Shown here piece by piece: positions 10,131 to 56,961 of a DNA stretch of 64,000 nt. Each line of letters starts with the position of its first letter. The stretch's first letter is position 1. The translations under genes and the position numbers were made by a program. The notes below the pieces were generated by a model, which was not told the DNA's origin, made no database searches, and worked only from the letters and a program-made list of their open reading frames with translations. This DNA comes from Planctomycetota bacterium. GTDB lineage: Bacteria; Planctomycetota; B15-G4; JADJEK01. The stretch lies in contig JBGAIQ010000004.1 in assembly GCA_044225365.1 (NCBI GenBank), forward strand, positions 96,001-160,000. The letters run 5' to 3'.

Positions 10131-11228
10131 TCACCAATGCGTGTGGAGCGCGGTGACGAACGAGTTCGAATATGCGAGCGGTAGGCGAGCTCGCGACGAG
10201 CGGAGGCTCAACTGCGGACGCGCGGCGAGAAGGAATTCGCGCGCGCTCGCGCTTGGGTAGGTCGTCTTCGCGTAATTGGTGAGAGACGCCGCGAGCACGT
10301 CGGCGCAGAGCGGGGTGAGGCCGGGAAGATCGTGAGGATCGAGTTCGGCCTCGACGGCGCGCCGCAGCGCTTCGGGATCGCCCTCGAGATCGGCGATCTT
10401 CAAGATGCGATCGGGCGCGACGATCGACCGCCCCGAACGGCCCGCTTCGACGCAGAGCGCATGGAGCCCTTCGTACCCGCGGCGCTCGATGATGCGCGTG
10501 ACGATGAAGTAGCCGACGCCGTAGAGCGGAGCGCCTTCATCATGGGTCGAACGTTCGAACACCTGATCGTCATCGAGGGCGAGTACTTCCGCGATCGATG
10601 GGATCGCCGCGGCCTTCACGCCGAGGCGCATTTCGTGAGTCTCGCTGCGAGTTCGATGCATCGCGTCCCGCGGCAATCGGAATTCGATCGTCGCGTCGAT
10701 TCCTCCGAACGCACCGCCGGCCTCGAGAAGTCGCCACGCTCGCAGCGTCGATTGCGAGTCGTCGACGACGTCGTAGGCAGCGTAGTCGCAGAGACCCTCC
10801 TCCAGCACTGCGGGCAACGAGTCCCAATCGCTGCCGAGCATGAGGTGCACCAGTTCGTGCGCGAGGTGCAGCTTCAGTTCGGCGTCCTCGTCGCGGAGAT
10901 AGATTCGCGACTGGGCGTACTCCGCCATTCCTGCGACGTGTTCTGGAAAGGGCTCGCCGCGAAACAGCTCGAGCTGCTTTTGCATCCAGACCTCGACCGG
11001 CCGATCGCGCATGCCCGGCATCAACTCGCGCAAGCGCGGCACGAGTTCCGCGAGCAAGTCCTCGGTGCTCCGGGCGCTCGCTTCGGATGCAGCGCGAACG
11101 ACCCCGAACTCGCTCTCCACCGCCTTGGGCGGTGGCTCCGCTCGACACGCGCCGACGGCACCCAAGGCGCAGGTGACGCCGAGCGCGAGAGCGAGGCGCC
11201 CCAGTCGGAGAAATCGAAGCTGCTTCAC
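10131..11228 (-). CDS. Putative lipoprotein, zincin/gluzincin-like metallopeptidase
   Basis: Signal peptide with lipobox-like VGAC; HELVH followed by LEEGLCDY. Confidence 0.6.
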   Translation of the reverse strand: MKQLRFLRLGRLALALGVTCALGAVGACRAEPPPKAVESEFGVVRAASEASARSTEDLLAELVPRLRELMPGMRDRPVEVWMQKQLELFRGEPFPEHVAGMAEYAQSRIYLRDEDAELKLHLAHELVHLMLGSDWDSLPAVLEEGLCDYAAYDVVDDSQSTLRAWRLLEAGGAFGGIDATIEFRLPRDAMHRTRSETHEMRLGVKAAAIPSIAEVLALDDDQVFERSTHDEGAPLYGVGYFIVTRIIERRGYEGLHALCVEAGRSGRSIVAPDRILKIADLEGDPEALRRAVEAELDPHDLPGLTPLCADVLAASLTNYAKTTYPSASAREFLLAARPQLSLRSSRARLPLAYSNSFVTALHTHW

Positions 11229-27791: not shown

Positions 27792-29897
27792 CTACCAAAG
27801 GCGACGGTCGCGCTCGGTGAACGTCTCGGGTTGCAGCCGCGGATACAGCGAGACGCCGCTCACGCCGAGTCCGGCGTAGATCTCCACGGGGACACCGTGA
27901 TGTTCGCCGCGATAGGTTTCGGCGCGACCCGCGACGTATCGCCACTGCCATTCGTCCGCGAGCGCCGACGCTCGACGCGACTGTTCGGGAGAGAGCGCGA
28001 TCGTTCGCACTTCCGTCTTTCCGGCGTCTCGCACCTGGCAGAACGCCCGATCTCCGACGATCTCGATTCGCGAGGGCTCGACCTCGCCGTCGCGCGAGTC
28101 GCCGTTGCAAAGCCGCGCCTCGATCGCCAGATTCGGAATGAACTCCATCGCGACGGACAGCGGGATCGGCCGCGCGTCGTCGGGAATGGTCATCTTGGCG
28201 AGTTCCGCATGGGCGCGCGCGGACCAATCGGTGTTCGGCAGCGCGTTCTTCAGCCACTCGAGCCGACTGCGGCGCACTGCGCGCGGAACCTCCTCGTCGA
28301 GCATCGCGTCAACGAGCCTCTTCTCGACGCGACTCGTCTCCGACGCACTCGCTCCGGCCTCGCGCAGAGCGAGAAGCGCCTTCCAGTGGTCCGCGCGATT
28401 CTCGTAACGACCCGCGAGATCCACGAGCACGGTCTTCCGCGCCGGGTGATCCGGCTCTCGCCGCGCGAACCTCGCCTCGGCGTCGATCACCGGATGATCG
28501 TCGATCGGATTGCCGAAGGCGGAGTAGCCGGCCCGCACGAGCGTCGCCGGGATCCAGAGGATCGGCACCAGGTAGTCGAGCCAGATTCGCGTCTCGGCGC
28601 GCCGCGCTTCGGTGTACTGCCCGAGAGGATCGGGATCCTCCCGCCTACCGGTGAAGACGAAGCGCCAAGCTGCGCGCGAACGTGCGGCCTTCACGTCGGT
28701 GATCTCGCGGAATGGCGCGAGGTCGGGTTGTTCGAGGCGCGCCTTCGATCGGCTTGCGGTGGTCGTTCGATCGTACTTCGTGACGTGTGACTCCAGCGAC
28801 GACGCGCCGCTGCGACCGATGCGACCGACTCGGCGCAGCGCGTCGGCGTAGTCGATCACGCGCTCGAACTCCTGAAGGTCGCCGATGCCATAGAAGCGAA
28901 GCGCGCCGCGCGGAGTCGCCATCGCGCTCTCGTTGCGGGAGAGATAGGCCTCGACGTATGCCGGGTAGACCTTCTTCAGCATCGAGTCGGTGACGAGTCG
29001 GCTCTCGATCGGCGCCACCGCGAGCGCATCTTCGAGGCGCTTCGCCATCTCCTTCGCCCGCGCTTCGATCGCGGACCTTGCTTCGTGGATCTCGTCGCGG
29101 CGAACCTCGAGCATCTCCGCGACGCGAAGATGTGCGAGCGCGGTCGACAGATCGTCGCGATCGAGGGCGCGCCGCGATAGCCATAGTTCCTCGCGCGCGG
29201 TCTGATCGTGCACCTTGGCGATGCGCCGAGTCAGGCTTGCGTCGAGTTCGGGCTCGAGCCCTTCGAGCCGCAGTCGCCGCTCGAGCGCGAGCCTTGCGCG
29301 ATCCCGCGGATCGATCGGCAAGCCGTTCAGGACGCCCTCGATCCCGACGACGAGCGGCTGCAACGTTCCGACAGGATTGCCCGTGAGCGCCGCCGCAGCG
29401 GTCTGCACGATTCCGTCGAAGAAACCCGCGAAGGTCGAATAGACGCTGTCGGAATCGAGCGTTCGTGCGTACCAGACTGGATCGCGCTCGAGTGCCGCAT
29501 CGACGAGCCGGTTCGCGAGATCGTCGCCGGGAATCGAATGCTGCGCCTCGAGCGCGGCGATGCGGGACTCTCGATCGTGGTCGTCGGCGGCGCGCAGGAG
29601 GAGGAGCGCGCGCTCGAGACCACAGGAGGAATCGTTCGCGACGTCGCGCTCACGGACGAGACCCACGGCCTCGTCGATCGCCGTGCGGCGCGCATCGCCG
29701 TCATTGAGGAGCACGTTCTCGATCGCGGCGACGATCGTCTCGCGAGTCGGCCCGGGCGGCGGCTTCGGCGGACTCTTGGGTGCCGTAGCGGGTGTGGCGC
29801 GCTGAGCGTTCGCCGTCGCGGAAATGGCGAAGGCGAGCATGGCGAAAATCGCCAGGACCCGGCGACCGCTTTCAAATCGATCACGAGTCATCGGCAT
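27792..29897 (-). CDS. Hypothetical exported protein, largely helical
   Basis: 701-aa ORF with signal peptide (LAIFAMLAFAISATANA); no recognisable catalytic motif. Confidence 0.7.
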   Translation of the reverse strand: MPMTRDRFESGRRVLAIFAMLAFAISATANAQRATPATAPKSPPKPPPGPTRETIVAAIENVLLNDGDARRTAIDEAVGLVRERDVANDSSCGLERALLLLRAADDHDRESRIAALEAQHSIPGDDLANRLVDAALERDPVWYARTLDSDSVYSTFAGFFDGIVQTAAAALTGNPVGTLQPLVVGIEGVLNGLPIDPRDRARLALERRLRLEGLEPELDASLTRRIAKVHDQTAREELWLSRRALDRDDLSTALAHLRVAEMLEVRRDEIHEARSAIEARAKEMAKRLEDALAVAPIESRLVTDSMLKKVYPAYVEAYLSRNESAMATPRGALRFYGIGDLQEFERVIDYADALRRVGRIGRSGASSLESHVTKYDRTTTASRSKARLEQPDLAPFREITDVKAARSRAAWRFVFTGRREDPDPLGQYTEARRAETRIWLDYLVPILWIPATLVRAGYSAFGNPIDDHPVIDAEARFARREPDHPARKTVLVDLAGRYENRADHWKALLALREAGASASETSRVEKRLVDAMLDEEVPRAVRRSRLEWLKNALPNTDWSARAHAELAKMTIPDDARPIPLSVAMEFIPNLAIEARLCNGDSRDGEVEPSRIEIVGDRAFCQVRDAGKTEVRTIALSPEQSRRASALADEWQWRYVAGRAETYRGEHHGVPVEIYAGLGVSGVSLYPRLQPETFTERDRRLW

Positions 29898-29917: not shown

Positions 29918-30280
29918 CTACTTGCCGACACTCTGCTTCATGTTCTCGAGGTACTTCCGGTAGGTCGGCCGTGAGAGCAACTTGTTCTGCACGACGTGGA
30001 TCGCACTCGCGACTTCACCCTTGTCCATCGGATGCATCTCGGGGAGCGCGAAGAACGCTCCCGCGGCTTCGGCCAAGTGGCGCCAGCAATCCGCTTCGCC
30101 CTCGGTCATTCCGGCTCCGATCACGAATTCACGGTCCTTGTCGAGATCGACGCCATCCTCGAGCTTCTTGCCGTCGTCGGCCTTCGCCACCGCGATTTCC
30201 GGCAGGGTCGCGGCGCCCGCGATCACGCCCGCGAGCGCGAGCATGTTGCGGCGTGTGAGATCTTCGTTCGAATCGGTCAT
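29918..30280 (-). CDS. Small Tat-exported hypothetical protein
   Basis: Twin-arginine signal TRRNMLALAG..AVA; GAGGG RBS. Confidence 0.7.
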   Translation of the reverse strand: MTDSNEDLTRRNMLALAGVIAGAATLPEIAVAKADDGKKLEDGVDLDKDREFVIGAGMTEGEADCWRHLAEAAGAFFALPEMHPMDKGEVASAIHVVQNKLLSRPTYRKYLENMKQSVGK

Positions 30281-32565: not shown

Positions 32566-33816
32566 TCAAAGGGAGAGGTTGCGGATGACGGCCATGCGCT
32601 CGTCGTGTTCCGTCTTCAGGATGCTCGTATACATGTTGATCAGCTCGTTCTTCTGCTGCAGGAGTTCCTGGAGCTGGAGTTGGAGCTGCTGCGCCTGTTC
32701 CGGCGGGACCTGGCCGCTCGCGAGCGCGTTCTTGATCGCGGTGATCTGCGAGTCGAGGCCACCGAGCTGGCCGAACACCGCGTTCTTGAACGAGTCGCCC
32801 GAGTTGCCGACCGTCGGCAGGCCGCCGACCGAACCCGTCGATCCGCCACCGGTCGGGAGACCCGGGAACTTCGGCAGGGAGGGGAAGCCGAAGTCGCCGG
32901 GGTTGAAGCCCGGGAGCTTGCCCGGCAGCGGCGACGTGTTGCCCGCGCCATTGTGCTGGATCGCAGCCATGATCGCGGCGATGAGCTGGCGGATGTTGTC
33001 GAAGCCCTGGCCCGGCGTCGGCGCCGTCGGATTCTTCGGGCTCTGGAACGCGCCGCCGTTCTTCAGCAGGTCCTGGATGCGCTCGAGCATCGCCTTGAGA
33101 CCCTGCTGACCGAACTTCGGGAGCGCCTGGTGCGCACCACCCTGGATCAGCTTGAGGAGATCGCCGATGTTCAGGTTCGCGAGTTCGCTCAGCGGCTTCT
33201 TCAGGAGATCGTTCGTGAAGTCGATGGCGCTGTGTCCACCGGCGCCGTCGAGGTTGACTTCACCGAAGCGGGCGGTCGGATCGCCACCGACGATCTGCTG
33301 ACCGTTCGAGGCATAGAACAGGTCGTCGACCTGATTGCCGGCGCGGAGCACCGTGCCGTCGTTCCACAGTTGGTCGAGCTCGAGCGAGCTGTCGAAGTGC
33401 TTGCCGGCCGTCGGCGCGTTCGTGATGTTCTCGACGAGCTCACCACCGCTCGGGGTCATGATCGCGAGGGAGTCGATCGTCGAGATCCCGTCCGCGTTCG
33501 GGGCCGTCGGCTTGATCGTGAGCTTGGTGCCGTCGGCGAGGTCGAGGGTGAGGTTGTCCTTCTGGAACTGCATCTTGTCGCCGTCGCCCGTCGTCAGGTG
33601 CGGGTCGCCCCACGCCTTCACCGACGTCTTGGTCTGCTTGTCGAAGACTTCGACTTCACCGTTCTTGACCGAGATGAGGTAGCGCTGCGTCTCGAATTGA
33701 CCGTTCCCTAGGTTCTTGAGGCCCCCCGGAGGGACCTGGGTTGGAAAACAGCACGCCTGGAGCGTGGACTTGACGTTGTCGAGGCTTGCGAGAGCGGCGG
33801 CGTTGATCTGGGACAT
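32566..33816 (-). CDS. T3SS-associated DUF1521/MIIA (GDPH autocleavage) domain protein with filament-like C-terminal helix
   Basis: Start MSQINAAAL with AAGGAG RBS; WGDPH...LTLDLADGTKLTI is DUF1521-like; Gly/Pro linker; C-terminus ...MYTSILKTEHDERMAVIRNLSL. Confidence 0.8.
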   Translation of the reverse strand: MSQINAAALASLDNVKSTLQACCFPTQVPPGGLKNLGNGQFETQRYLISVKNGEVEVFDKQTKTSVKAWGDPHLTTGDGDKMQFQKDNLTLDLADGTKLTIKPTAPNADGISTIDSLAIMTPSGGELVENITNAPTAGKHFDSSLELDQLWNDGTVLRAGNQVDDLFYASNGQQIVGGDPTARFGEVNLDGAGGHSAIDFTNDLLKKPLSELANLNIGDLLKLIQGGAHQALPKFGQQGLKAMLERIQDLLKNGGAFQSPKNPTAPTPGQGFDNIRQLIAAIMAAIQHNGAGNTSPLPGKLPGFNPGDFGFPSLPKFPGLPTGGGSTGSVGGLPTVGNSGDSFKNAVFGQLGGLDSQITAIKNALASGQVPPEQAQQLQLQLQELLQQKNELINMYTSILKTEHDERMAVIRNLSL

Positions 33817-33932: not shown

Positions 33933-35075
33933 TTACTCGTTCGCCGCCGGTTCCTCGCCCTTTTCCGCGAGATACGCCTGGACGCGCGTCTCCCAGGGAG
34001 CGAGTTCGCCACGGTCGTGGGCCTTCTCCGCGACCCACTTCAGGAGCTCGGCCACCGCTTCGTTCATTTCCTCGGGGATCTGACGATTCAGCTCTACTTT
34101 GAAGAGCGCCCGGGCGAGCGGTGGATCCTCGCGGATCGGGATCCCCTTCTGATCCGCGATCTCGCGGATGCGCAATGCGACGACGCCCTTGCCCTTCGCG
34201 ATGAGACGAGGCGCGCCCTCCTTCTTCGGATCGAATCGCAAGGCGCAGGCGTAGTGCGTCGGGTTCACGGTGACGACGTCGGCCCCGCCCGATGCGAGGT
34301 TGCGATACATGCCGCCCTGCATGCGTTCGATGCGGGCGCGCTTGATCTTCGCCTTCGTCTCCGGGTCGCCCTCCATCTGCTTGTATTCCTTCTTCAACTC
34401 CTCCTTCGACATCCGGTTCTCCTTGCCGAACTGGAAGCGTTGATAGAAGAAGTCGAAGGCTCCGACGCCGAAGAAGCACGCGAGCGCCCAGCTCACCATG
34501 TCCTTGAGCGCCATCGCTCCGCGATGACTCGCGTCGAGGAGCGGCAACCGCGACAAACGCACGAAGTCCGGCAGGTAGCCCTTCAGGATCTGCCAACTGA
34601 CGAGACCCACGATCATGAGCTTCGTGATGTTCTTCCCGAGCTCGATCCAGGTCCGCATCGAGAAGAACTGCTTCTTCAGACCGCCGATCGGATCGAGGTT
34701 CTCGAGCTTCGGTGTGAGCTTCTCGAACGAGAGGACCGGGCCGACCTGCAGCCACTGGATCAGTCCGCCGACCGCCGCCGTGATCACCATGAACGGAAGG
34801 AACGCGACGAAGAGATCCTTCACCGCGTCGGTGAACGCCTTCACGATGACTTCGTTGTCGAGCCGCCCGCGCACCGCGAGTCCGAAGACGTCCGTCGTCG
34901 TCGTCACCAGCCGCGTACCGAGATCGACCGCGATGAACGACAACGAGGTGTACCCCGCGAGCAGCACGAATGCCGTCGTGAAGTCCCGCGACTGCGGAAC
35001 GTTGCCCTTCTTCCGCAATTCCTCGAGTTTGTGCGGTGATGCTTCTTCGGTCTTGTCGCCGGCGTCGTCGGCCAT
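33933..35075 (-). CDS. sctU: Type III secretion switch protein SctU (YscU/FlhB family)
   Basis: KTEEASPHKLEELRKKGNV, MSKEELKKEYKQMEGDP, NPTH autocleavage motif, LARAL. Confidence 0.95.
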   Translation of the reverse strand: MADDAGDKTEEASPHKLEELRKKGNVPQSRDFTTAFVLLAGYTSLSFIAVDLGTRLVTTTTDVFGLAVRGRLDNEVIVKAFTDAVKDLFVAFLPFMVITAAVGGLIQWLQVGPVLSFEKLTPKLENLDPIGGLKKQFFSMRTWIELGKNITKLMIVGLVSWQILKGYLPDFVRLSRLPLLDASHRGAMALKDMVSWALACFFGVGAFDFFYQRFQFGKENRMSKEELKKEYKQMEGDPETKAKIKRARIERMQGGMYRNLASGGADVVTVNPTHYACALRFDPKKEGAPRLIAKGKGVVALRIREIADQKGIPIREDPPLARALFKVELNRQIPEEMNEAVAELLKWVAEKAHDRGELAPWETRVQAYLAEKGEEPAANE

Positions 35076-40646: not shown

Positions 40647-42344
40647 TCAGGACAGCTCGCCTTCGGTCGTAGCTTCGAGCTTGGATGAACTCTCCCGGGT
40701 CCGGACTTGTTCGAGCGCGGCGAGGATCTTCAAGAGATCCTCCGGATCGACCGGTTTGACGCGATGATGATCGAATCCGGACTTTCGCGCCTCGCGAACA
40801 TCGGCGTCCTGTCCCCATCCCGTCACGGCGATCAGGATGATCCGCTTCCCCCATGGTTCGCGACGAATCGCTTTCGCGACGTCGTAGCCATTCAGCTTCG
40901 GCAGACCGATGTCGCACAGGATCACGTCCGGCCGATATTCCTCCGCGGTTCGAACCGCCTGCTCGCCGTCGACCGCAACGCGGACATCGTTGCCCATCAT
41001 CGTCAGAAGCATGGCGAGGCTGTCGACCGAATCCCGATTGTCGTCGACGACCATGACCCGAAGGTGGGAGGTCGCGTTCACGGCGCCTGGGCTCTCCCGC
41101 TTGCCCGTCGCCGACTTCTCGTCGACGATCGGTAGACTCACGATGAATTCGCTGCCCTTGCCGAGCCCTTCGCTCCGCGCCTGGATGCGCCCCCCGTGCA
41201 ATTCGACGAGGCGCCTCACCAGTGAGAGTCCGATGCCGAGACCGCCCGCGGAGCGGTACAGCGCGCCTTCGACTTGCGAGAACATCTCGAAGATCGTGGG
41301 CAGTTTGTCGGGCGGGATTCCGATCCCCGTGTCCTTGATCGAAACGACGAGTTCGCTGCCCTCCCTCTGAGCGGTGAGCTCGATGCGACCGCCGCGATCG
41401 GTGTATTTCACGGCGTTGTCCAGGAGGTTCAGGAACACTTGCGCGAGGCGCGTCAGATCCGCGTCGAGGATCACTGGGGTCGCGGGCAGGGTCACGATGA
41501 GCTCATGTCCGCCCTCGTCGATGTGCGGCCGGCTCGTCTCGATTGCTCCGGAGATCACTCGCGAGGCGTCCACCAGCTCGCGCTTGAGCTCGATCTTCCC
41601 GCGGCTGATCCGGCTCACATCCATCAGGTCGTCGATGAGGCGCGTGAGGTGATGCGTCTGACGATCGATGACGTCCTTGGCCCACTGGATCTCGGGAGTC
41701 GCCGATTCATGCGCTCGAAGGAGACGCACGGCGTTCCTCACGGGAGCGAGCGGATTGCGCAGCTCATGCGCCAGCGTCGCGAGGAATTCGTCCTTCCGGC
41801 GATCGACTTCGCGCAACGCGCGTGTGCGATCCTCGACTCGTTCCTCCAGCGACTCATTGAGTTCGCGGAGCCGCTCCTCGACGACTCGACGCTCGGCGAT
41901 CTCGATGCTCAGTTTGCGATTCGCCGCCTCGATCAGGCGGTTCTGTCGGAACAGCTCCGCGAAGACGACGACCTTCGAACGGAGGATGGGCGGACTCACT
42001 GGCTTATGCAGGTAATCGACGGCGCCGACGTCGTAGCCCTCGAGCACGTGTTGATCTTCGTTGTAGAAGGCGGTCAGGAAGATGATCGGGATTCGCGACG
42101 TCTTCGCGCGCTTCTTCACGATCTGCGCGAGCTCGAATCCCGTCATCGTCGGCATGTGGACGTCGAGGATCAGCAGCGCGAACTCCTCCACCATGAGAGC
42201 GAGGAGCGCCTTGTCGCCAGTGTCGGCGCGGACGATCCGATATCCGGGGTCATCGAGAATCGTCTCCAGCACCGTCAGATTCCTGGGCTCGTCGTCGACG
42301 ATCAGGATGTTGATCGGGTCTTCCGTGCTCGGATCCATGCTCAT
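40647..42344 (-). CDS. Hybrid sensor kinase (REC-HisKA-HATPase-REC)
   Basis: ILIVDD, LAHELRNPL, NLLDNAVKYT, GLGIGL, second receiver domain. Confidence 0.93.
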   Translation of the reverse strand: MSMDPSTEDPINILIVDDEPRNLTVLETILDDPGYRIVRADTGDKALLALMVEEFALLILDVHMPTMTGFELAQIVKKRAKTSRIPIIFLTAFYNEDQHVLEGYDVGAVDYLHKPVSPPILRSKVVVFAELFRQNRLIEAANRKLSIEIAERRVVEERLRELNESLEERVEDRTRALREVDRRKDEFLATLAHELRNPLAPVRNAVRLLRAHESATPEIQWAKDVIDRQTHHLTRLIDDLMDVSRISRGKIELKRELVDASRVISGAIETSRPHIDEGGHELIVTLPATPVILDADLTRLAQVFLNLLDNAVKYTDRGGRIELTAQREGSELVVSIKDTGIGIPPDKLPTIFEMFSQVEGALYRSAGGLGIGLSLVRRLVELHGGRIQARSEGLGKGSEFIVSLPIVDEKSATGKRESPGAVNATSHLRVMVVDDNRDSVDSLAMLLTMMGNDVRVAVDGEQAVRTAEEYRPDVILCDIGLPKLNGYDVAKAIRREPWGKRIILIAVTGWGQDADVREARKSGFDHHRVKPVDPEDLLKILAALEQVRTRESSSKLEATTEGELS

Positions 42345-42382: not shown

Positions 42383-49591
<7,209 letters not shown>

Positions 49592-49801
49592 GAGGACCAC
49601 ACGAGGATTGGACGAGAACGCAACCGACCGAGGAGGTTCGAGGGTGGGCCGCGATCCACGGTTCATGGAATGGGAGGGATCGCCACGGATTCCTCTACCG
49701 CCTCTTGCTGAACAAGATAGCGCGGTTCCGCGATCGTGAACGTCCCGCTCGTGGGAAACGAGCTTTCGGCCCATCGACTCCGGCGATGGGTTCCTCGCGC
49801 T

Positions 49802-50587
49802 TCAACCGCCGAAGAAGGCCGCGATTCGTTGGAACGACCCCTGCACCAGGACATCGAGCGTGTAGCCGAGGGTCAGCATCATCAGCGCGAGACCGATGAG
49901 TCCCTTGAACGTCATGCCGAGGAAGAAGACCTGGATCTGTGACGCGACACGATTCGTCACGCCGAGCATCATGTCGACGAGGAAGAGCGTCACGATCACC
50001 GGCATCGCGAGTTGGAGCGAGGCGATGAAGAGATCGGCGACGAGGCCGACGAGCGCGTGCATGCCTTCCGCGCCGAGGAATCGGGCGGGAAGCGCGGGAC
50101 CGACCGGTGCGCTCTCGAGGCTCGAGGCGAGCGCGGAGATCACCATGCGATGACCGCCGAGGGAGCAGAAGAGCGCGAGCGTGAGCGAGAGTTGGAAGAG
50201 CGCGAGCGGGGACTGTTGCGTGCGGGCGAACGGGTCGTAGACGAGGGCCTGCGACGAGCCGCGCACCATGTCGACGAGACTGCCGACACTCGAGACGAAG
50301 TCGAACAGGATCCGCACAAAGACCGCGAGGACGAGTCCGATGAGCGCTTCCTTCACGGCGTAGAGGCCGAACTCGGCGAGTGTGGGCGCCGTCGAATCCG
50401 GACGATACGCGAGGCCTGCGAGCACGAGAGCGAGGAGGAGCGCGAGAGCCGTCTTGAACCGCTTCGGCGCGCTCTCGCCGCCGAAGAGCGGCGTGAGCGA
50501 AACGAGGAACACGACGCGGATGAACACGAGGCCGAAGTAGGCCGCGTAGGACTTCAATCCGTCCGGAATCAGCGTCGCGAGCTCCAT
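49802..50587 (-). CDS. sctT: T3SS export apparatus SctT (FliR family)
   Basis: KEALIGL, GSLVDMVRG, LGGH, LAMPVIVTLFLVD..G..NR..QIQVFFL; follows sctR-sctS. Confidence 0.92.
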   Translation of the reverse strand: MELATLIPDGLKSYAAYFGLVFIRVVFLVSLTPLFGGESAPKRFKTALALLLALVLAGLAYRPDSTAPTLAEFGLYAVKEALIGLVLAVFVRILFDFVSSVGSLVDMVRGSSQALVYDPFARTQQSPLALFQLSLTLALFCSLGGHRMVISALASSLESAPVGPALPARFLGAEGMHALVGLVADLFIASLQLAMPVIVTLFLVDMMLGVTNRVASQIQVFFLGMTFKGLIGLALMMLTLGYTLDVLVQGSFQRIAAFFGG

Positions 50588-50609: not shown

Positions 50610-50879
50610 TCAGGCGTGAACGGAACCGATCATCGTGAGCATCTTGGCCGCGAATTGGATGAGGCCTTGGAGCATCCACATCCCCGCCGCGATGAGGACG
50701 CCGTAGGTGACGACGATCTTCGGGACCTGTGTGAGCGTCTGTTCCTGGATCTGCGTCGCGGCCTGGAACAGGCTGATCACGAGCCCGACCACCATCGAGG
50801 CCAGGACCGGCAACGCGGAAAGGACGATCGCGAGCTGAAGTGCATCGCGGCCGATTCGAATCGCGACTTCAGGATCCAT
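50610..50879 (-). CDS. sctS: T3SS export apparatus SctS (FliQ family)
   Basis: VGLVISLFQAATQIQEQTL..VPKIV. Confidence 0.95.
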   Translation of the reverse strand: MDPEVAIRIGRDALQLAIVLSALPVLASMVVGLVISLFQAATQIQEQTLTQVPKIVVTYGVLIAAGMWMLQGLIQFAAKMLTMIGSVHA

Positions 50880-50891
50880 GTCCGCTCTCCA

Positions 50892-51662
50892 TCACGACAC
50901 GTAGCCCTGGACGAGGCCCTCGAGGATGAGCCGCCAGCCGTCCACCAGGACGAAGAGCAGGAGCTTCAGCGGCAGCGTGATGACTTGCGGGTTCATCATC
51001 ATCATGCCGAGTGCGATCAGGATGTTGCTGACGACGAGTTCGATGACCAGGAACGGAACGAGCAGGAGGAATCCGATCTGGAACGCCTCCGTCAACTCGG
51101 AGAGCAGGAACGCCGGCGCGTGGATCGTGAGGAGATCGAGCCACTGCGTGATCGTCGTGCGCGCGGCGGGATCGGCCGTCGCCTGAATGACCGCATCGGT
51201 GCCGCCCAGGCGGGCGCGCAGATCGCGGAACAACTGACGATTCGCCTCGGTGGAGTGCTTGTCGAGGAATTCCTCGACGACCTCGCGTCCCGCCGTGAGA
51301 CCGACCTCGATGTTCTTGTCCTTGTTCTCGGGGACTTGGATCCGCTCGTTGTAGCGCTGGTACCCGATCGCGGCGACCGGCGCCATGATGTGGATCGTGA
51401 GGATGAGCGCGATGCCGGTGAGCACCGACGTCGGCGGCGTCTGCTGCGTGCCGAGCGCCTGGCGCAGGAGTCCTCCCACGATCACGAGTTTCGCGAACGA
51501 GGTGATCATCGAGAGCAGGAACGGGGCGAGCGCGAGCGAAACGAGGATGACGAGCATCAGCGTCATCTGATTGGGATCGAGCATCCCCTTCGCTGCATTG
51601 GGCGCGGCGTCGGTCGCGTTCTGCAACGCGGGCAGCGCGATCGCGAGAAGACAAGGGCTCAT
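50892..51662 (-). CDS. sctR: T3SS export apparatus SctR (FliP family)
   Basis: TSFAKLVIV..RQALGTQQTPP, PAFLLSELTEAFQIGF, LPLKLLLFVLVDGW. Confidence 0.95.
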   Translation of the reverse strand: MSPCLLAIALPALQNATDAAPNAAKGMLDPNQMTLMLVILVSLALAPFLLSMITSFAKLVIVGGLLRQALGTQQTPPTSVLTGIALILTIHIMAPVAAIGYQRYNERIQVPENKDKNIEVGLTAGREVVEEFLDKHSTEANRQLFRDLRARLGGTDAVIQATADPAARTTITQWLDLLTIHAPAFLLSELTEAFQIGFLLLVPFLVIELVVSNILIALGMMMMNPQVITLPLKLLLFVLVDGWRLILEGLVQGYVS

Positions 51663-52147
51663 GATTCACCTCCGATCGGAGGCTCGTGACGCGAACCCTC
51701 CGCCTTCGACTGGAGCAGACGTTCGACGAACGCAACCGACTGCGGTGACTTCTTCGACTGCACGGACGAGCCGTCGCTCGCGACGCGTGCGAGGTGTTCG
51801 AGCGTCGAAGGATCGAAGTCGCCTCCCGCCAGGACGTCGATGCGCTGGTCCGTGACCCCGAGGAGATAGAACTGGTCGACGACTTGAACGAGACAGAGTG
51901 AGCGCCGCGGCTCGAGCGGGCGCCGTTCGATGACCTTGATCAACCCGCGCGACGCGAGGGGAAACCGCTGCCCGAGGAACCGCGGCAGGAACCGCCCCGC
52001 GGCGAAGAGCAGAACCACCATGATCGCGAGCACCCACAGCATGCGCGTGAGGCTGTCCGCGTACGACGTGGCCTCGATCGCCTTCGTCGTCTTCTCCGGG
52101 ACGCCGTCCTGGATCGCGATGGATGCGAGGAGCAAGATCCCGTTCAT
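51659..52147 (-). CDS. FliO/MopB-like membrane protein
   Basis: One TM helix then IKVIERRPLEPRRSLCLVQVVDQFYLLGVTDQRI, the FliO cytoplasmic pattern; lies between the Q- and R-like genes. Confidence 0.8.
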   Translation of the reverse strand: MNGILLLASIAIQDGVPEKTTKAIEATSYADSLTRMLWVLAIMVVLLFAAGRFLPRFLGQRFPLASRGLIKVIERRPLEPRRSLCLVQVVDQFYLLGVTDQRIDVLAGGDFDPSTLEHLARVASDGSSVQSKKSPQSVAFVERLLQSKAEGSRHEPPIGGES

Positions 52148-53307
52148 GGCGCCTCCTCTCCGATCTGCTTCGAATAGATCGCCGTGAGTCGAACGCCGAC
52201 TTCGCCGCTCACGCTCACCAGTTCGCCGCGAGCGATCTCCGCGCCTTCGCAGCAAATCGAAACGCCCGCCGAGGTCGACTTGGCCAGATCGAGACGCGCC
52301 CCCGCGGTCCAGTTCTCGAGTTGATCGTGAGTAAGACGAGAAACGCCAAGGAGCGGCTGTAGCAGCGCCGATCCCGCAACCGCGCGAGGACTCGCCATCG
52401 GCGAGAAGACGATGGGTTCGAGCCGTCCGACGCGAACACCGACCGAGGTCGGAGTGTCGATCTCGATCGTCGCGTGCGAGAGTCGCCAATGGGTCGCGGT
52501 GACCAGCGAACAATTCGCACCGAACGAATCGAGCGTGGTCGCCCCGGTGAGGAGGACGTCCCCCAGGTCGGCGGCGGCCCATTCGAGCGGAGTGATGTCG
52601 AAAGCCGGAAGCGCGAGGAAGACCTCGACGCTCGTGCGGCCGCGTCCCGCGACCTCCGATCGCGGCGCGGGCGGCAGCACGCGCCGAACCGGTCGCAGGT
52701 AACCGTTCGGCAGCCAGAGATTCGCGCGTCCTTCGAGGTGGTCGACGATCACTCGCATCTCGAGCGGATGACCTCGAAGCGTGTCCCCCGAGGCGAGTTC
52801 CGCGCGCTTCAAGAACGACTGCAGGCCCGCCGCTCCGACGACACCGATCGATTCCCGGTGCAGTTCGGCGAGCGTTTGCAGCGTCGCGAATTCCAGCAGC
52901 GCGGTCTCGACGCGAGTCGGATCGCCGTAACCGCGAATGGGTGCGTAGAGGGGTACGAACACGCTCGCGATTCCCTCGGCCGCGCGCTGATCGAGAACGA
53001 CCGTCGCAACTGCGTCGCCGCCGAGCGCGATCCGGAATCCGAACTTGGCATCCGCGCTCGCGAGCCGTTCGCTCTTGCCAGTGAACAGGATCTGGACGCT
53101 GCGGCGATAACGGACTCCGAGGACGCTCTCGACCGGCAATCCCTCGGCGAGCGAGCGCTCGATGTCATTGACGATTCGGCGCAAGGCGAGCCAATCGCGC
53201 GCCGCCGCTTCTCCCCCTGCTACGGGCACGAGCGCATCGGCAGCGATCGCGGCGATGACGCCGGGATCGACTCGCTCCTTCTGCTCCTCGTGTTCGTTAC
53301 CGTGCAT
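52144..53307 (-). CDS. sctQ: T3SS C-ring / sorting platform SctQ (SPOA domains)
   Basis: C-terminal GARLDL..GAEIARGELVSVSGEVGVRL SPOA motif; expected position. Confidence 0.75.
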   Translation of the reverse strand: MHGNEHEEQKERVDPGVIAAIAADALVPVAGGEAAARDWLALRRIVNDIERSLAEGLPVESVLGVRYRRSVQILFTGKSERLASADAKFGFRIALGGDAVATVVLDQRAAEGIASVFVPLYAPIRGYGDPTRVETALLEFATLQTLAELHRESIGVVGAAGLQSFLKRAELASGDTLRGHPLEMRVIVDHLEGRANLWLPNGYLRPVRRVLPPAPRSEVAGRGRTSVEVFLALPAFDITPLEWAAADLGDVLLTGATTLDSFGANCSLVTATHWRLSHATIEIDTPTSVGVRVGRLEPIVFSPMASPRAVAGSALLQPLLGVSRLTHDQLENWTAGARLDLAKSTSAGVSICCEGAEIARGELVSVSGEVGVRLTAIYSKQIGEEAP

Positions 53308-54311: not shown

Positions 54312-54794
54312 TCACGGATCCCGCTTCTGGTTGAATCGGATGATCTGGTCGTCGTCCCGTTCGTTGTCTTCCTTCTTCGCCTGCTTGGCGAGGAATTGCT
54401 TGAAGCGGATCTCGCGTTGGCGGCGATAGGAGTCGAGCTCGGCCTCGATCCGCACGAGTTCGGATTCGGCGATCTCGAGCTGGGCTTTGATCGTTCGGGC
54501 GACTCGCGCTTTCTGTTCGAGTCGAACGGCGTGACGCCGGACGTGTTCGCGCCGGACTTCGAGCCGCCGTCCCTCCCGTTCCATGTCGGCGGCCGGCAAC
54601 AGCACGAGTCGCGCGTAGCCGATCTTCAATCTCCGATCGATCCAAGCCGAGAAGCGTTTTCGCCGAGTCACGTTCCGTTCCGCGCGCTTCAACTTGCCGC
54701 GCAGCCTCTTGACGCGACGCTCCGCCTCCACCTTCTCCCGGTCTTTCAGGAGGAGGACGGCGTCGAGTTCGGAACGGAAGACGGGCTTGCTCAT
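54312..54794 (-). CDS. Probable stalk protein SctO (FliJ-like coiled coil)
   Basis: 160-aa charged coiled coil overlapping the ATPase stop; ends KKEDNERDD. Confidence 0.7.
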   Translation of the reverse strand: MSKPVFRSELDAVLLLKDREKVEAERRVKRLRGKLKRAERNVTRRKRFSAWIDRRLKIGYARLVLLPAADMEREGRRLEVRREHVRRHAVRLEQKARVARTIKAQLEIAESELVRIEAELDSYRRQREIRFKQFLAKQAKKEDNERDDDQIIRFNQKRDP

Positions 54795-56146
54795 GCGTCG
54801 TCGTACCAGTCACCGAATTCGGATCCGAGGGCTTCGACCGTTTGCGCGAGCGGAACGCGGATCGCCGTGTCCTGATGCAGGAAGCGCTCGACCTGCTTGT
54901 CCCGCGACGAGATCTCGGCCGAATCCATGCCATGGTCCTCGTAGAGGCCCATCTTGATCTTGTCGTAGTTCTTCACGAACTCGGACTTGAGCTGCAGCAC
55001 CTTCGACGCGAGCGCCCGATGCTCCTTCGTGGTGACGAGACTCATGAGGCGGCTCTTGCTGCGCAGCACGTCGATTGCGGGATAGCGACCGCTCGCAGCG
55101 ATCTCGCGCGAGAGTAGGAAGTGGCCATCGAGGAGTGAGATCGTCTCCTCGACGACGGGATCGGAGACGTCGTCGGAATCGGCGAGGACGGTGTAGAACG
55201 CGGTGATCGATCCCACTTCCGCATTGCCCGCGCGCTCGAAGAGCTGAGGAAGCCGCGCATACATCGAAGCCGGATATCCGCCCTTGCCCATCGGTTCGCC
55301 GACCGCCTGGCCGAGGTCACGCAAGGCACGCGCGAAACGGGTCACGGAGTCCATCATCAGGAGCACGCGTTCACCGCGGGCGCGCGCTTCCTCGGCGATC
55401 GCCGTCGCGGTGTACGCCGCGCGCACGCGCATCAACGCGGATTCATCGCTGGTCGACACGACGACGGTCGCGCGTGCTACGCCCTCGACGCCGAGATCGT
55501 GCTCGATGAACTGACGCACCTCGCGGCCACGTTCGCCGATGAGCGCGAGCACGATCGTGTCGGCCTTCACGTTGCGAACGAGGCAGGAGAGCAGGGTCGA
55601 CTTGCCGACGCCCGCCGCCGCGCAGAGGCCGACGCGTTGGCCGACCGCCACGGTGAGCAGGCCGTCGATCGCGCGAATGCCGGTCTCGAGCGGCTCGACG
55701 TTCGATTTCCGCTTCATCGGATCGGGGGGCTTGCTGAACATCACCGCCCGCTGATTTCCGACGAGCGGGCCCTTCGAATCGATCGGCTCGCCCATCGCGT
55801 TGATCACACGACCTCGCACCGAATCGCCACAGGGGACCGTGGGAAGCGCCTCGACGGGCTCGACGACCGCGCCCATCGCGACGGCGTCGACGCGGTCGTA
55901 GGGCATCAGGATCGCACCGCGATCGTCGAATCCGATCACCTCGGCGAGGAGGTCGGCGACGCCCGCGCGCCGAATGCGGCACACTTCGCCGAGACAGACG
56001 TCGGGCACCGACGCGATGACGATGAGTCCCTTCACGCTCGTGACGCGCCCCGACCGCGCCACGACCGTCTGCGCGCCGGAGCCGAGGAGCGCGTCGAGGT
56101 TCGGCGCCTTGAAGTCGATCTCGAAGTCGAATTCAGGTTCGGTCAC
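54791..56146 (-). CDS. sctN: T3SS ATPase SctN
   Basis: TGIRAIDGLL..GQRVG, AAAGVGKST, ALIGERGREV, MMDSVTRFARA, GSITAFYTVL, LLDGH, YPAIDV. Confidence 0.95.
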   Translation of the reverse strand: MTEPEFDFEIDFKAPNLDALLGSGAQTVVARSGRVTSVKGLIVIASVPDVCLGEVCRIRRAGVADLLAEVIGFDDRGAILMPYDRVDAVAMGAVVEPVEALPTVPCGDSVRGRVINAMGEPIDSKGPLVGNQRAVMFSKPPDPMKRKSNVEPLETGIRAIDGLLTVAVGQRVGLCAAAGVGKSTLLSCLVRNVKADTIVLALIGERGREVRQFIEHDLGVEGVARATVVVSTSDESALMRVRAAYTATAIAEEARARGERVLLMMDSVTRFARALRDLGQAVGEPMGKGGYPASMYARLPQLFERAGNAEVGSITAFYTVLADSDDVSDPVVEETISLLDGHFLLSREIAASGRYPAIDVLRSKSRLMSLVTTKEHRALASKVLQLKSEFVKNYDKIKMGLYEDHGMDSAEISSRDKQVERFLHQDTAIRVPLAQTVEALGSEFGDWYDDA

Positions 56147-56156
56147 GAGTCACCTC

Positions 56157-56374
56157 GTAGGGGCAGACGGCTGTCTGCCCGGCTTGGGGACGGACGCACA
56201 GCCGTGCGCCCCTACGGACGGGCGCATCGCCGACACCATCACCCCACGTGTTCCGATCGCCGGCCGCCCGGGGTTCGCGCGAAGGTCGATGCCCCCCGTA
56301 GGGGCAGACGCCTGTCTGCCCGTTCCTGGGATCGCGGAAGACGCGACGCCGGGCGCACAGCCGTGCGCCCCTAC
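56157..56374. repeat. Two inverted pairs of GTAG-family REP sequences (REPIN/BIME-like)
   Basis: 56157-56180 GTAGGGGCAGACGGCTGTCTGCCC; 56192-56215 GGACGCACAGCCGTGCGCCCCTAC; 56298-56321; 56351-56374 GGGCGCACAGCCGTGCGCCCCTAC. Confidence 0.9.
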
Positions 56375-56877
56375 CGGTCGGGGTCGGTCGACCAATTCAC
56401 TGGATTCGCGCGAATGTAGTCGCGCGCGGCATCGAGTTCGCGTTCGTCGCGCACGATCCGATCGAAGAATCCGCGCTGCCAGATCACCCCGCCCGGACTG
56501 TTCAGCATGGTGCGGGCTCGCGTCGTCACCGCCGCTTCGAACTGAGCGATCAAGGAGGACAGCGAACGTGACGGACGAGCGAGACGAGTGCGCTGTTCTT
56601 GTTCCGGACCGGACCCGTCGATCTGCACGATCGCATGAAAGTGGTTCGGCATGATCACGAACTCGTCGAGTCGGATCTCCGTGCGAATCGCCGCGCTTCG
56701 AACCCATTCCTCGCTGACGATCCTGCCGACCGGGATGAGGAGAACCTGATCGTCGGAGATGTTTCCGAAGATGCAGCGCTTGTCCTTCGTGCAGATCGTC
56801 ACGAAATACCAACCGTCCGACCCGTAGTCGTAGCCGGGAAGGCGAGAGGACTGCCGATCGGGACGCGGAGGTTCCAT
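56371..56877 (-). mobile_element. REP-associated tyrosine transposase (RAYT, Y1 HUH)
   Basis: RLPGYDY..YFVTICT, VIMPNHFH, WQRGF, DYIRANP; flanked by REPs. Confidence 0.92.
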
Positions 56878-56961
56878 GCTGAGAAGAATGCTCGCCAATG
56901 CGAAAGACATCCTGGATTGACGAGGAATGTCTACGAACGCAATCGTTCGAAACGCGACGAC

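Follow-up and report, generated by a model that had tools for sequence, protein, structure and literature searches.

The 64-kb stretch of Planctomycetota DNA analyzed here (contig JBGAIQ010000004.1, positions 96,001 to 160,000; hereafter the window, to which all coordinates refer) carries a T3SS (type III secretion system) locus in which a 416-amino acid (aa) protein, P0001, combines an N-terminal DUF1521/MIIA domain containing the self-cleavage motif GDPH with a C-terminal helical hairpin resembling that of the needle subunit SctF. The last helix of this hairpin is shared with a second protein of the locus, the 113-aa P0002, whose gene lies in the sctF slot. Our preferred reading, to which we assign a probability of roughly one-half, is that P0001 is exported and becomes a tip, cap, or sheath subunit, docking on a filament made of the 113-aa protein, folding upon binding calcium, and cutting itself between D71 and P72. 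The fusion of an MIIA domain to a needle hairpin appears to be previously undescribed; no needle-type helix on a DUF1521 protein was encountered in the titles and abstracts found by our literature search (subscription journals lay outside its scope).

The original prediction had placed the 416-aa open reading frame (ORF) between sctU and sctV, and the Bac_export_2 and FHIPEP matches of the two flanking genes confirmed this arrangement (Table 1). The start codon of the P0001 gene is backed by homologues of 56–65% identity that begin at the same place, and that of the P0002 gene likewise by homologues sharing its start. The AlphaFold2 model of the whole of P0001, built from an 83-row alignment, has a mean predicted local distance difference test (pLDDT) score of 78.7, with values above 95 in the beta-rich part at residues ∼34–168; residues 31–200 folded alone gave a pLDDT of 96.2 and a predicted template modeling score of 0.91. 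The low-confidence segment in front of this domain (residues 1–30) presumably carries the type III export signal, and the corresponding stretch varies in length, with GDPH located anywhere from position 30 to position 176 among the listed relatives that have a single GDPH and end in the helix. Behind the domain, weakly predicted helices lead into a linker (residues 291–340) with 14 Gly and 9 Pro per 50 residues, and this is followed by the hairpin, modeled as a helix (residues 341–367), a GQVP turn (residues 368–371), and a second helix (residues 372–415), with block-mean pLDDT values of 83–95.

Consistent with the assignment proposed originally, PF07481 (DUF1521) matched residues 48–133 of P0001 (E = 1.6e-7; profile positions 22–107 of 169), the score of 31.9 bits exceeding the cut-off of 23.6. 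A six-frame search of the 6.5-Mb genome with the same profile gave P0001 as the sole DUF1521 match, with 33.1 bits over profile positions 22–135. The WGDPH motif occupies residues 69–73, precisely where it had been located, and GDPH is intact in 67 of the 76 domain-bearing rows of alignment A3, whose rows were picked mostly for having the helix. Cleavage C-terminal of the GDPH aspartate has been demonstrated for the MIIA protein VIC_001052, in which this residue is D116 (PMC6506597). According to that report, this MIIA domain remains largely disordered in the absence of metal, a state that its authors proposed to aid export, and calcium, which is bound with sub-micromolar to micromolar affinity, causes the domain to fold and to cleave itself after the GDPH aspartate.

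The tails of P0001 (...MYTSILKTEHDERMAVIRNLSL) and P0002 (...MISNISKTEHESRMNLVRNMRP) are identical at 10 of 20 positions without gaps. A hand count thus reproduced the figure given originally; the accompanying statement that both 20-mers stand at the extreme C terminus did not hold, since SL and RP still follow them. The shared helix itself is real: BLASTP aligned P0001 with P0002 at E = 6e-7, and a hidden Markov model (HMM) of the hairpin, built from the last 85 aa of 55 members of the P0001 family with P0002 left out, found only these two proteins when all 65,876 six-frame ORFs of at least 50 aa in the genome were scanned without filters (P0001, E = 4.3e-24; P0002, E = 1.9e-9; next match, E = 0.52). 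Further, hhalign of the C-terminal profile of the P0001 family against the 113-aa family gave a probability of 97.8% over 44 columns. At the level of sequence, the likeness between the two helices is more than chance. Prediction of a complex between residues 336–416 of P0001 and residues 60–113 of P0002 scored 0.04 and 0.02, where the mark to be reached is 0.32; these values, obtained without controls, weigh neither for nor against binding.

We next considered the type to which the hairpin belongs, which had been proposed to be that of the needle subunits. When a 56-member family profile was compared with the sequences of all solved structures, the best profile matches for the hairpin were the needle proteins MxiH of Shigella (E = 0.009–0.016) and PrgI of Salmonella (E = 0.022–0.33), with the last 65 profile positions aligned to the final residue; the alignment with MxiH at E = 0.009 runs end to end, and PrgI matched the hairpin at E = 0.09. 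As an SctF reference, we used four natural SctF genes above the PF09392 cut-off, drawn from 401 Pseudomonadota genomes; hhalign of the C-terminal profile of the P0001 family against these four gave a probability of 94.4% over 38 columns ending at both C termini, and controls with reversed alignments gave 0.1–0.2%. Among named clusters of the ESM Atlas, the one closest to residues 335–416 was “Type III secretion needle MxiH, YscF...” (score 0.93, 199 of 256 features); of the 30 matches of this segment, 19 fell in the EscF/YscF/HrpA set. The needle character of the helix was thus upheld by the profile comparison, the structure matches, and the Atlas cluster. PF09392 itself touched 3 of the 56 family members below its cut-off (best E = 0.0036). 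Because P0001 lies below the detection limit of PF09392 and only the second helix is confidently aligned, we refer to the hairpin as an SctF-type module without assigning it to that family. There was likewise no PF09392 match in P0002 at E ≤ 1 or in the whole genome at E ≤ 10, so the filament proteins of this system must be divergent ones, such as P0001 and P0002. With the whole model as query, VIA-align returned only generic hairpins for residues 336–416, and Foldseek searches of the Protein Data Bank (PDB) with the whole model and with the N-terminal domain model gave nothing at E ≤ 0.001.

P0002 had been described as a needle-like subunit, and its gene position and its link to the 416-aa family agree with this description; every direct SctF test of it, reported further below, was negative. 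The gene adjoins that of a tetratricopeptide repeat (TPR) chaperone and lies upstream of an SctI-like gene and sctJ, that is, in the slot of sctF, and the gene order from the 493-aa ORF to sctT (Table 1) is that of the ysc operons. The chaperone has NCBIfam matches to LcrH/SycD (E = 6e-8), SctY (E = 0.001), and CdsG (E = 0.002), none of which reaches its cut-off, and homologues of the 186-aa SctI-like ORF adjoin sctJ in three related loci (L004, L006, and L008). Six relatives of P0002 (57–99% identity) were found, all Gly-rich over the N-terminal two-thirds, and the last 38 columns of the family are near-invariant (34 of 38 identical in all seven sequences). P0002 has no Pfam or NCBIfam match, and its score against the HrpA pilin clusters of the Atlas was 0.83, where scores below 0.9 are leads only. 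We therefore treat P0002 as a candidate needle or pilus protein, an identity that rests on gene position and the link to the 416-aa family.

To place P0001 among its relatives, we used a representative search, which returned 248 relatives at E ≤ 1e-3. Among the 150 of these that were listed, a loose sequence pattern assigned 46 to GDPH plus a helix-like end, 16 to a helix-like end only, 86 to GDPH only, and 2 to neither; the pattern overlooks some true cases, such as P0011. Ten genome loci were recovered, seven from Planctomycetota (including Phycisphaerae) and three from Pseudomonadota. In all seven Planctomycetota loci (L002–L004, L006, and L008–L010), the homologue is surrounded by T3SS genes, and in five of them it immediately follows sctU; the hairpin HMM matched five of the seven homologues at E < 1e-5 and the other two weakly (E = 0.0057 and 0.14). 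The helix is absent from the homologues of all three Pseudomonadota loci. Among seven metagenome loci, sct genes adjoin the homologue in each of the three contigs of at least 8 kb, the other four being too short to tell. In the distant locus L006, the fusion protein occurs together with a Gly-rich orthologue of P0002 that ends in ...SNISKTEHDTRVNSIRNMRG and adjoins a TPR gene. The hairpin is also found apart from the MIIA domain: in three proteins (P0013, P0094, and P0152), the linker and hairpin follow another N-terminal domain, which looks helical and has no DUF1521 and for which a metagenome scan (alignment A6) gave no locus, and in four short proteins of 91–162 aa (P0117, P0122, P0131, and P0153), the hairpin stands alone. 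This distribution fits a carrier module that displays passengers.

We infer a sequence of export, filament docking, outward-facing display of the passenger, and cleavage. P0001 would travel unfolded through the apparatus, and its hairpin would dock into or onto the helical lattice of P0002, where it would serve as tip or cap or form a sheath as a second subunit. Needle filaments have the C-terminal helix along the channel and the N terminus on the surface; this topology, together with the 50-residue Pro/Gly-rich linker, would leave the N-terminal passenger outside the filament. There, by analogy with VIC_001052, it would meet calcium, fold, and cut itself between D71 and P72, so that a piece of 36.2 kDa would stay on the filament, and the N-terminal piece of 7.6 kDa would be either released or held noncovalently.

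The MIIA domain was also compared with the von Willebrand D (VWD) domains of MUC2, MUC5AC, FCGBP, and RGM and with the Asp-Pro “clip-and-link” module of FrpC. In GDPH-cleaving VWD domains, as in MIIA, GD|PH is followed by T-x-DG, and weak matches of MIIA in sequence and fold to the VWD domains of mucins, FCGBP, VWF, and RGM occurred repeatedly. The family profile matched the GDPH segments of FCGBP with a whole-sequence E of 1.4e-5 spread over five short repeats (best stretch, E = 0.86), and Pfam VWD (PF00094) touched 6 of 56 relatives (best E = 0.0045), in both cases with scores under the safe level of the tool; chains containing VWD made up 11 of the 50 fold matches listed; and MUC2 had the top probability in Foldseek with the whole model (0.77–0.80), with no match at E ≤ 0.001. 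Kinship between MIIA and VWD is thus a lead and not yet a finding; if confirmed, it would link a self-cleaving domain of bacteria with one of animals. Cleavage of VWD proteins leaves a reactive Asp anhydride, and NopE1 is listed among GDPH proteins without VWD domains (both from PMC8267560). If such an anhydride formed in P0001, it would be carried by the small N-terminal piece rather than by the one with the hairpin. A bolder extension, which we regard as speculative and rather improbable, is that P0001 represents a new axial class of secretin-less Planctomycetota T3SSs, in which a hairpin carrier bears exchangeable passengers on a filament. The typical passenger, a bacterial relative of VWD, would be exported unfolded, fold upon encountering calcium, and cleave at GD|PH, and the resulting reactive Asp anhydride could let the apparatus mark or grip a target surface covalently.

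Several observations weigh against P0001 being a tip, cap, or sheath subunit of an external filament. No secretin domain was found within the window or in the stretches of at most 10 kb to either side of the seven Planctomycetota homologues, and all 13 secretin genes of the genome lie on other contigs. The metagenome loci were also without a secretin domain; such domains occurred near the homologue only in the Pseudomonadota loci L005 and L011. With no linked secretin, an external needle may not exist, and an extracellular needle is therefore an assumption. The locus is, moreover, split by kinase genes and an IS200-like ORF, which makes the activity of the T3SS in this genome uncertain. The P0001 gene was found in none of 40 genomes of the same family or order (completeness 70–95%). 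A single FHIPEP gene was present in 21 of these genomes, mostly with 34–37% identity (three truncated matches had 41–53%), and the remaining 19 had none at E ≤ 1e-20. In the genome studied here, a second FHIPEP gene elsewhere, with 36% identity to sctV, is read as flagellar FlhA, like the sole copy found in the relatives. Because the 40 relatives have a flagellar-type FHIPEP or none and lack the fusion gene, the injectisome-like locus is patchy in the lineage. As to the needle proteins, P0001 alone has no PF09392 match at E ≤ 1, its link to SctF needs family profiles and is confident mainly over the 38 columns of the last helix, and helical hairpins are a common fold, which makes a structural match unspecific. 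For P0002, a PDB profile search with the 113-aa family gave no needle protein, hhalign of this family against SctF gave only 2.2%, and the Atlas scores did not exceed 0.85, a value reached with a cluster in which 11% of members have PF09392. GDPH is degenerate in 9 of the 76 domain-bearing rows of A3 (for example, GDSH, GDMN, GGQY, and GDML), all of which keep the helix, so cleavage is not essential to the family; to judge from the motif, it has been lost repeatedly among relatives while the architecture stayed. Finally, export, polymerization, and cleavage are read here from sequence.

An unlikely alternative, although the one that survives best, is that P0001 is a secreted effector of the NopE/VIC_001052 kind, whose helix mimics that of the needle so as to be held by the needle chaperone or exported early, and which never joins a filament. 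The characterized DUF1521 proteins are treated as T3SS-secreted effectors (PMC6506597), and the TPR chaperone encoded beside P0002, with its faint likeness to CdsG, SctY, and LcrH, could bind the shared helix. Moreover, the 86 listed relatives that have GDPH without a helix-like end by the loose pattern, together with the three helix-less Pseudomonadota loci, imply that the domain also works without the helix. A fixed place in the core operon, directly after sctU in five of seven Planctomycetota loci, would however be uncommon for an effector gene; conservation extends over the entire hairpin, beyond what a chaperone-binding helix would call for, and the hairpin occurs alone and behind another N-terminal domain.

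Alternatively, P0001 could be the main subunit of a decorated needle in which each subunit bears an outer domain, as in flagellin, with P0002 serving as a rod, adaptor, or minor subunit, which we consider quite unlikely. The full two-helix hairpin and the direct profile link to SctF are found only in the 416-aa family, whereas P0002 has a single helix behind a Gly-rich region, much like an inner rod, and shows no direct SctF signal; the genome has no canonical SctF, and the 50-residue linker could hold the passenger clear of the lattice. However, it is the P0002 gene that stands at the sctF position beside the chaperone gene, and it is the P0002 helix that is near-invariant and largely kept in the distant L006 orthologue, as would be expected of a major subunit. 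In addition, the rod slot is already taken by the 186-aa SctI-like ORF, and a 44-kDa subunit exported hundreds of times would be costly.

A further possibility, which seems very unlikely to us, is a calcium-sensing plug or gate, in which the hairpin caps or blocks the needle channel and folding and cleavage of the passenger, triggered by calcium, switch secretion on or off. Calcium is a known secretion cue for injectisomes, and the gene lies between sctU and sctV, which encode the switch protein and the gate protein, respectively. The MIIA domain, moreover, answers to micromolar calcium (PMC6506597). The rows of A3 that lose GDPH yet keep the helix speak against such a switch, and nothing like the gatekeeper SctW was found in P0001 with Pfam or NCBIfam; this proposal also overlaps with that of a tip protein, from which it is hard to tell apart by sequence. 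That the shared helix is a chance or compositional likeness of coiled-coil-prone tails, for which the shortness of the match, the Q/L/E-rich composition of both tails, and the generic nature of hairpins might be cited, is close to refuted by the genome-wide HMM search, by the hhalign probability of 97.8%, by reversed controls below 0.3%, and by the recurrence of the pair in a distant Phycisphaeraceae metagenome-assembled genome.

Table 1. Features of the T3SS locus in window coordinates, the two proteins under study first and then the remaining genes from the high-coordinate end of the window downward
Feature	Coordinates	Strand	Basis or remarks
P0001 gene, 416-aa MIIA plus needle-hairpin protein	32566..33816	-	Translation; 43.8 kDa and pI (isoelectric point) 5.2 predicted
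P0001 residues 1–30, low-confidence N-terminal segment	33727..33816	-	AlphaFold2 pLDDT ∼60
P0001 residues 31–200, DUF1521/MIIA beta domain	33217..33726	-	PF07481; acidic, 24 D/E vs 13 K/R
WGDPH motif, P0001 residues 69–73	33598..33612	-	Expected scissile bond D71|P72, codons 33604-33606 and 33601-33603
P0001 residues 201–340, weak helices 237–252 and 268–290, then Pro/Gly-rich linker	32797..33216	-	AlphaFold2 pLDDT 35–60
P0001 residues 341–416, SctF-type helix-turn-helix hairpin	32569..32796	-	AlphaFold2, profile matches
P0002 gene, 113-aa Gly-rich protein	61343..61684	-	Candidate needle/pilus subunit by gene position
Shared helix in P0002, residues 72–113	61346-61471	-	Hairpin HMM, E = 1.9e-9
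493-aa lipoprotein-like ORF (LLLAVGC), first of operon	62144-63625	-	Matches no family; slot where sctD or an outer-membrane component might lie
98-aa ORF between 493-aa ORF and P0002 gene		-	Gene order
TPR chaperone, 146 aa, adjoining P0002 gene	60855..61295	-	Pfam TPR
124-aa ORF between TPR gene and 186-aa ORF		-	Gene order
186-aa ORF directly upstream of sctJ, possible inner rod (SctI)	59860..60420	-	Position; faint C-terminal HrpB2 match, E = 0.69
sctJ	58719-59768	-	Pfam
297-aa ORF between sctJ and sctL		-	Gene order
sctL	57025-57735	-	Pfam
IS200-like ORF, 179 aa, between sctL and sctN	56371-56910	-	Partial Y1 transposase match, 27.5 bits vs cut-off 23
sctN	54791-56146	-	Pfam
160-aa ORF, then ORF of ∼297 aa, between sctN and sctQ		-	Gene order
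sctQ	52144-53307	-	Pfam
FliO-like ORF before sctR	51659-52582	-	PF04347, E = 3e-11
sctR	50892-51662	-	Pfam
sctS	50610-50879	-	Pfam
sctT	49802-50587	-	Pfam
Hybrid histidine kinase, 2463 aa, between sctT and sctU	42383-49774	-	∼14–15 HAMP repeats, GAF, kinase core, three receivers
Hybrid kinase/receiver, 565 aa, after 2463-aa kinase	40647-42344	-	Between sctT and sctU
sctU, 380 aa, NPTH motif	33933..35075	-	Bac_export_2, E = 1.4e-104
sctV, 706 aa	30309..32429	-	FHIPEP, E = 3.9e-179

The reading frames of the apparatus genes listed in Table 1 were picked by third-position GC content, which also indicates that the real start of the FliO-like ORF probably lies near 52250. FliO is normally a flagellar feature, and the ORF is here within a non-flagellar locus. 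In related loci, sctT and sctU are adjacent, unlike here, where the two kinase genes lie between them. In the Methylobacterium T3SS locus L011, the stretch at 10743-11096, after the helix-less DUF1521 gene, has 35% identity over 127 aa to a receiver of the 2463-aa kinase; this match probably reflects just a shared common domain. Downstream of sctV are ORFs of 120 aa (29918-30280, minus strand), with a faint match to a twin-arginine signal, and of 701 aa (27792-29897, minus strand), neither of which has a family match or a counterpart in the related loci. Inspection of the ORFs in the 19 kb past the high end of the window revealed no obvious sct gene.

MIIA/DUF1521 proteins have so far been studied as soluble effectors, and the purpose of their calcium-triggered self-cleavage is obscure. 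Finding the domain welded to a needle polymerization module in many relatives, and encoded within the core operon, points to a structural, apparatus-bound role, which would give MIIA cleavage a testable context. P0001 and P0002 are, further, candidate filament proteins for a T3SS lineage without a detectable canonical SctF or a linked secretin. They are also relevant to what early or secretin-less T3SSs build, a question that Abby and Rocha raised (PMC3459982).

Compared with known systems, P0001 has DUF1521 with GDPH in common with VIC_001052 of Vibrio coralliilyticus and NopE1/NopE2 of Bradyrhizobium. The gene for VIC_001052 belongs to a T3SS cluster, and it and NopE are described as effectors, with no mention of a needle-like C-terminal helix in the passages of PMC6506597 consulted. 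The helix is lacking in relatives that have two GDPH motifs, such as P0085 and P0097; NopE may or may not be among them. VIC_001052 was sought among the relatives of P0001, and none had its length together with D116, W172, and W223; P0031 has the length and D116 only, and tblastn of P0031 against plasmids gave no match. P0002 resembles the HrpA-type pilins in its length, variable N-terminal part, and helical C terminus, a resemblance that amounts to the Atlas lead of 0.83 for a protein without a Pfam or NCBIfam match. The tip and filament proteins EspA/SseB, LcrV, and IpaD/SipD are exported proteins of ∼20–40 kDa that are seated on the needle via long C-terminal helices. Residues 356–404 of P0001 have a faint match to SseB (E = 0.017; 15.1 bits against the NCBIfam cut-off of 155), and, unlike P0001, these proteins have no beta-rich, self-cleaving N-terminal domain. 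SctF itself (MxiH, PrgI, and YscF) is likewise a helix-turn-helix hairpin of ∼75 residues, whose last helix aligns with the hairpin of P0001 to the very C terminus and shares K, D, I, N, and R positions with it; whereas SctF stands alone at 70–90 aa, here the hairpin forms the tail of a 416-aa protein.

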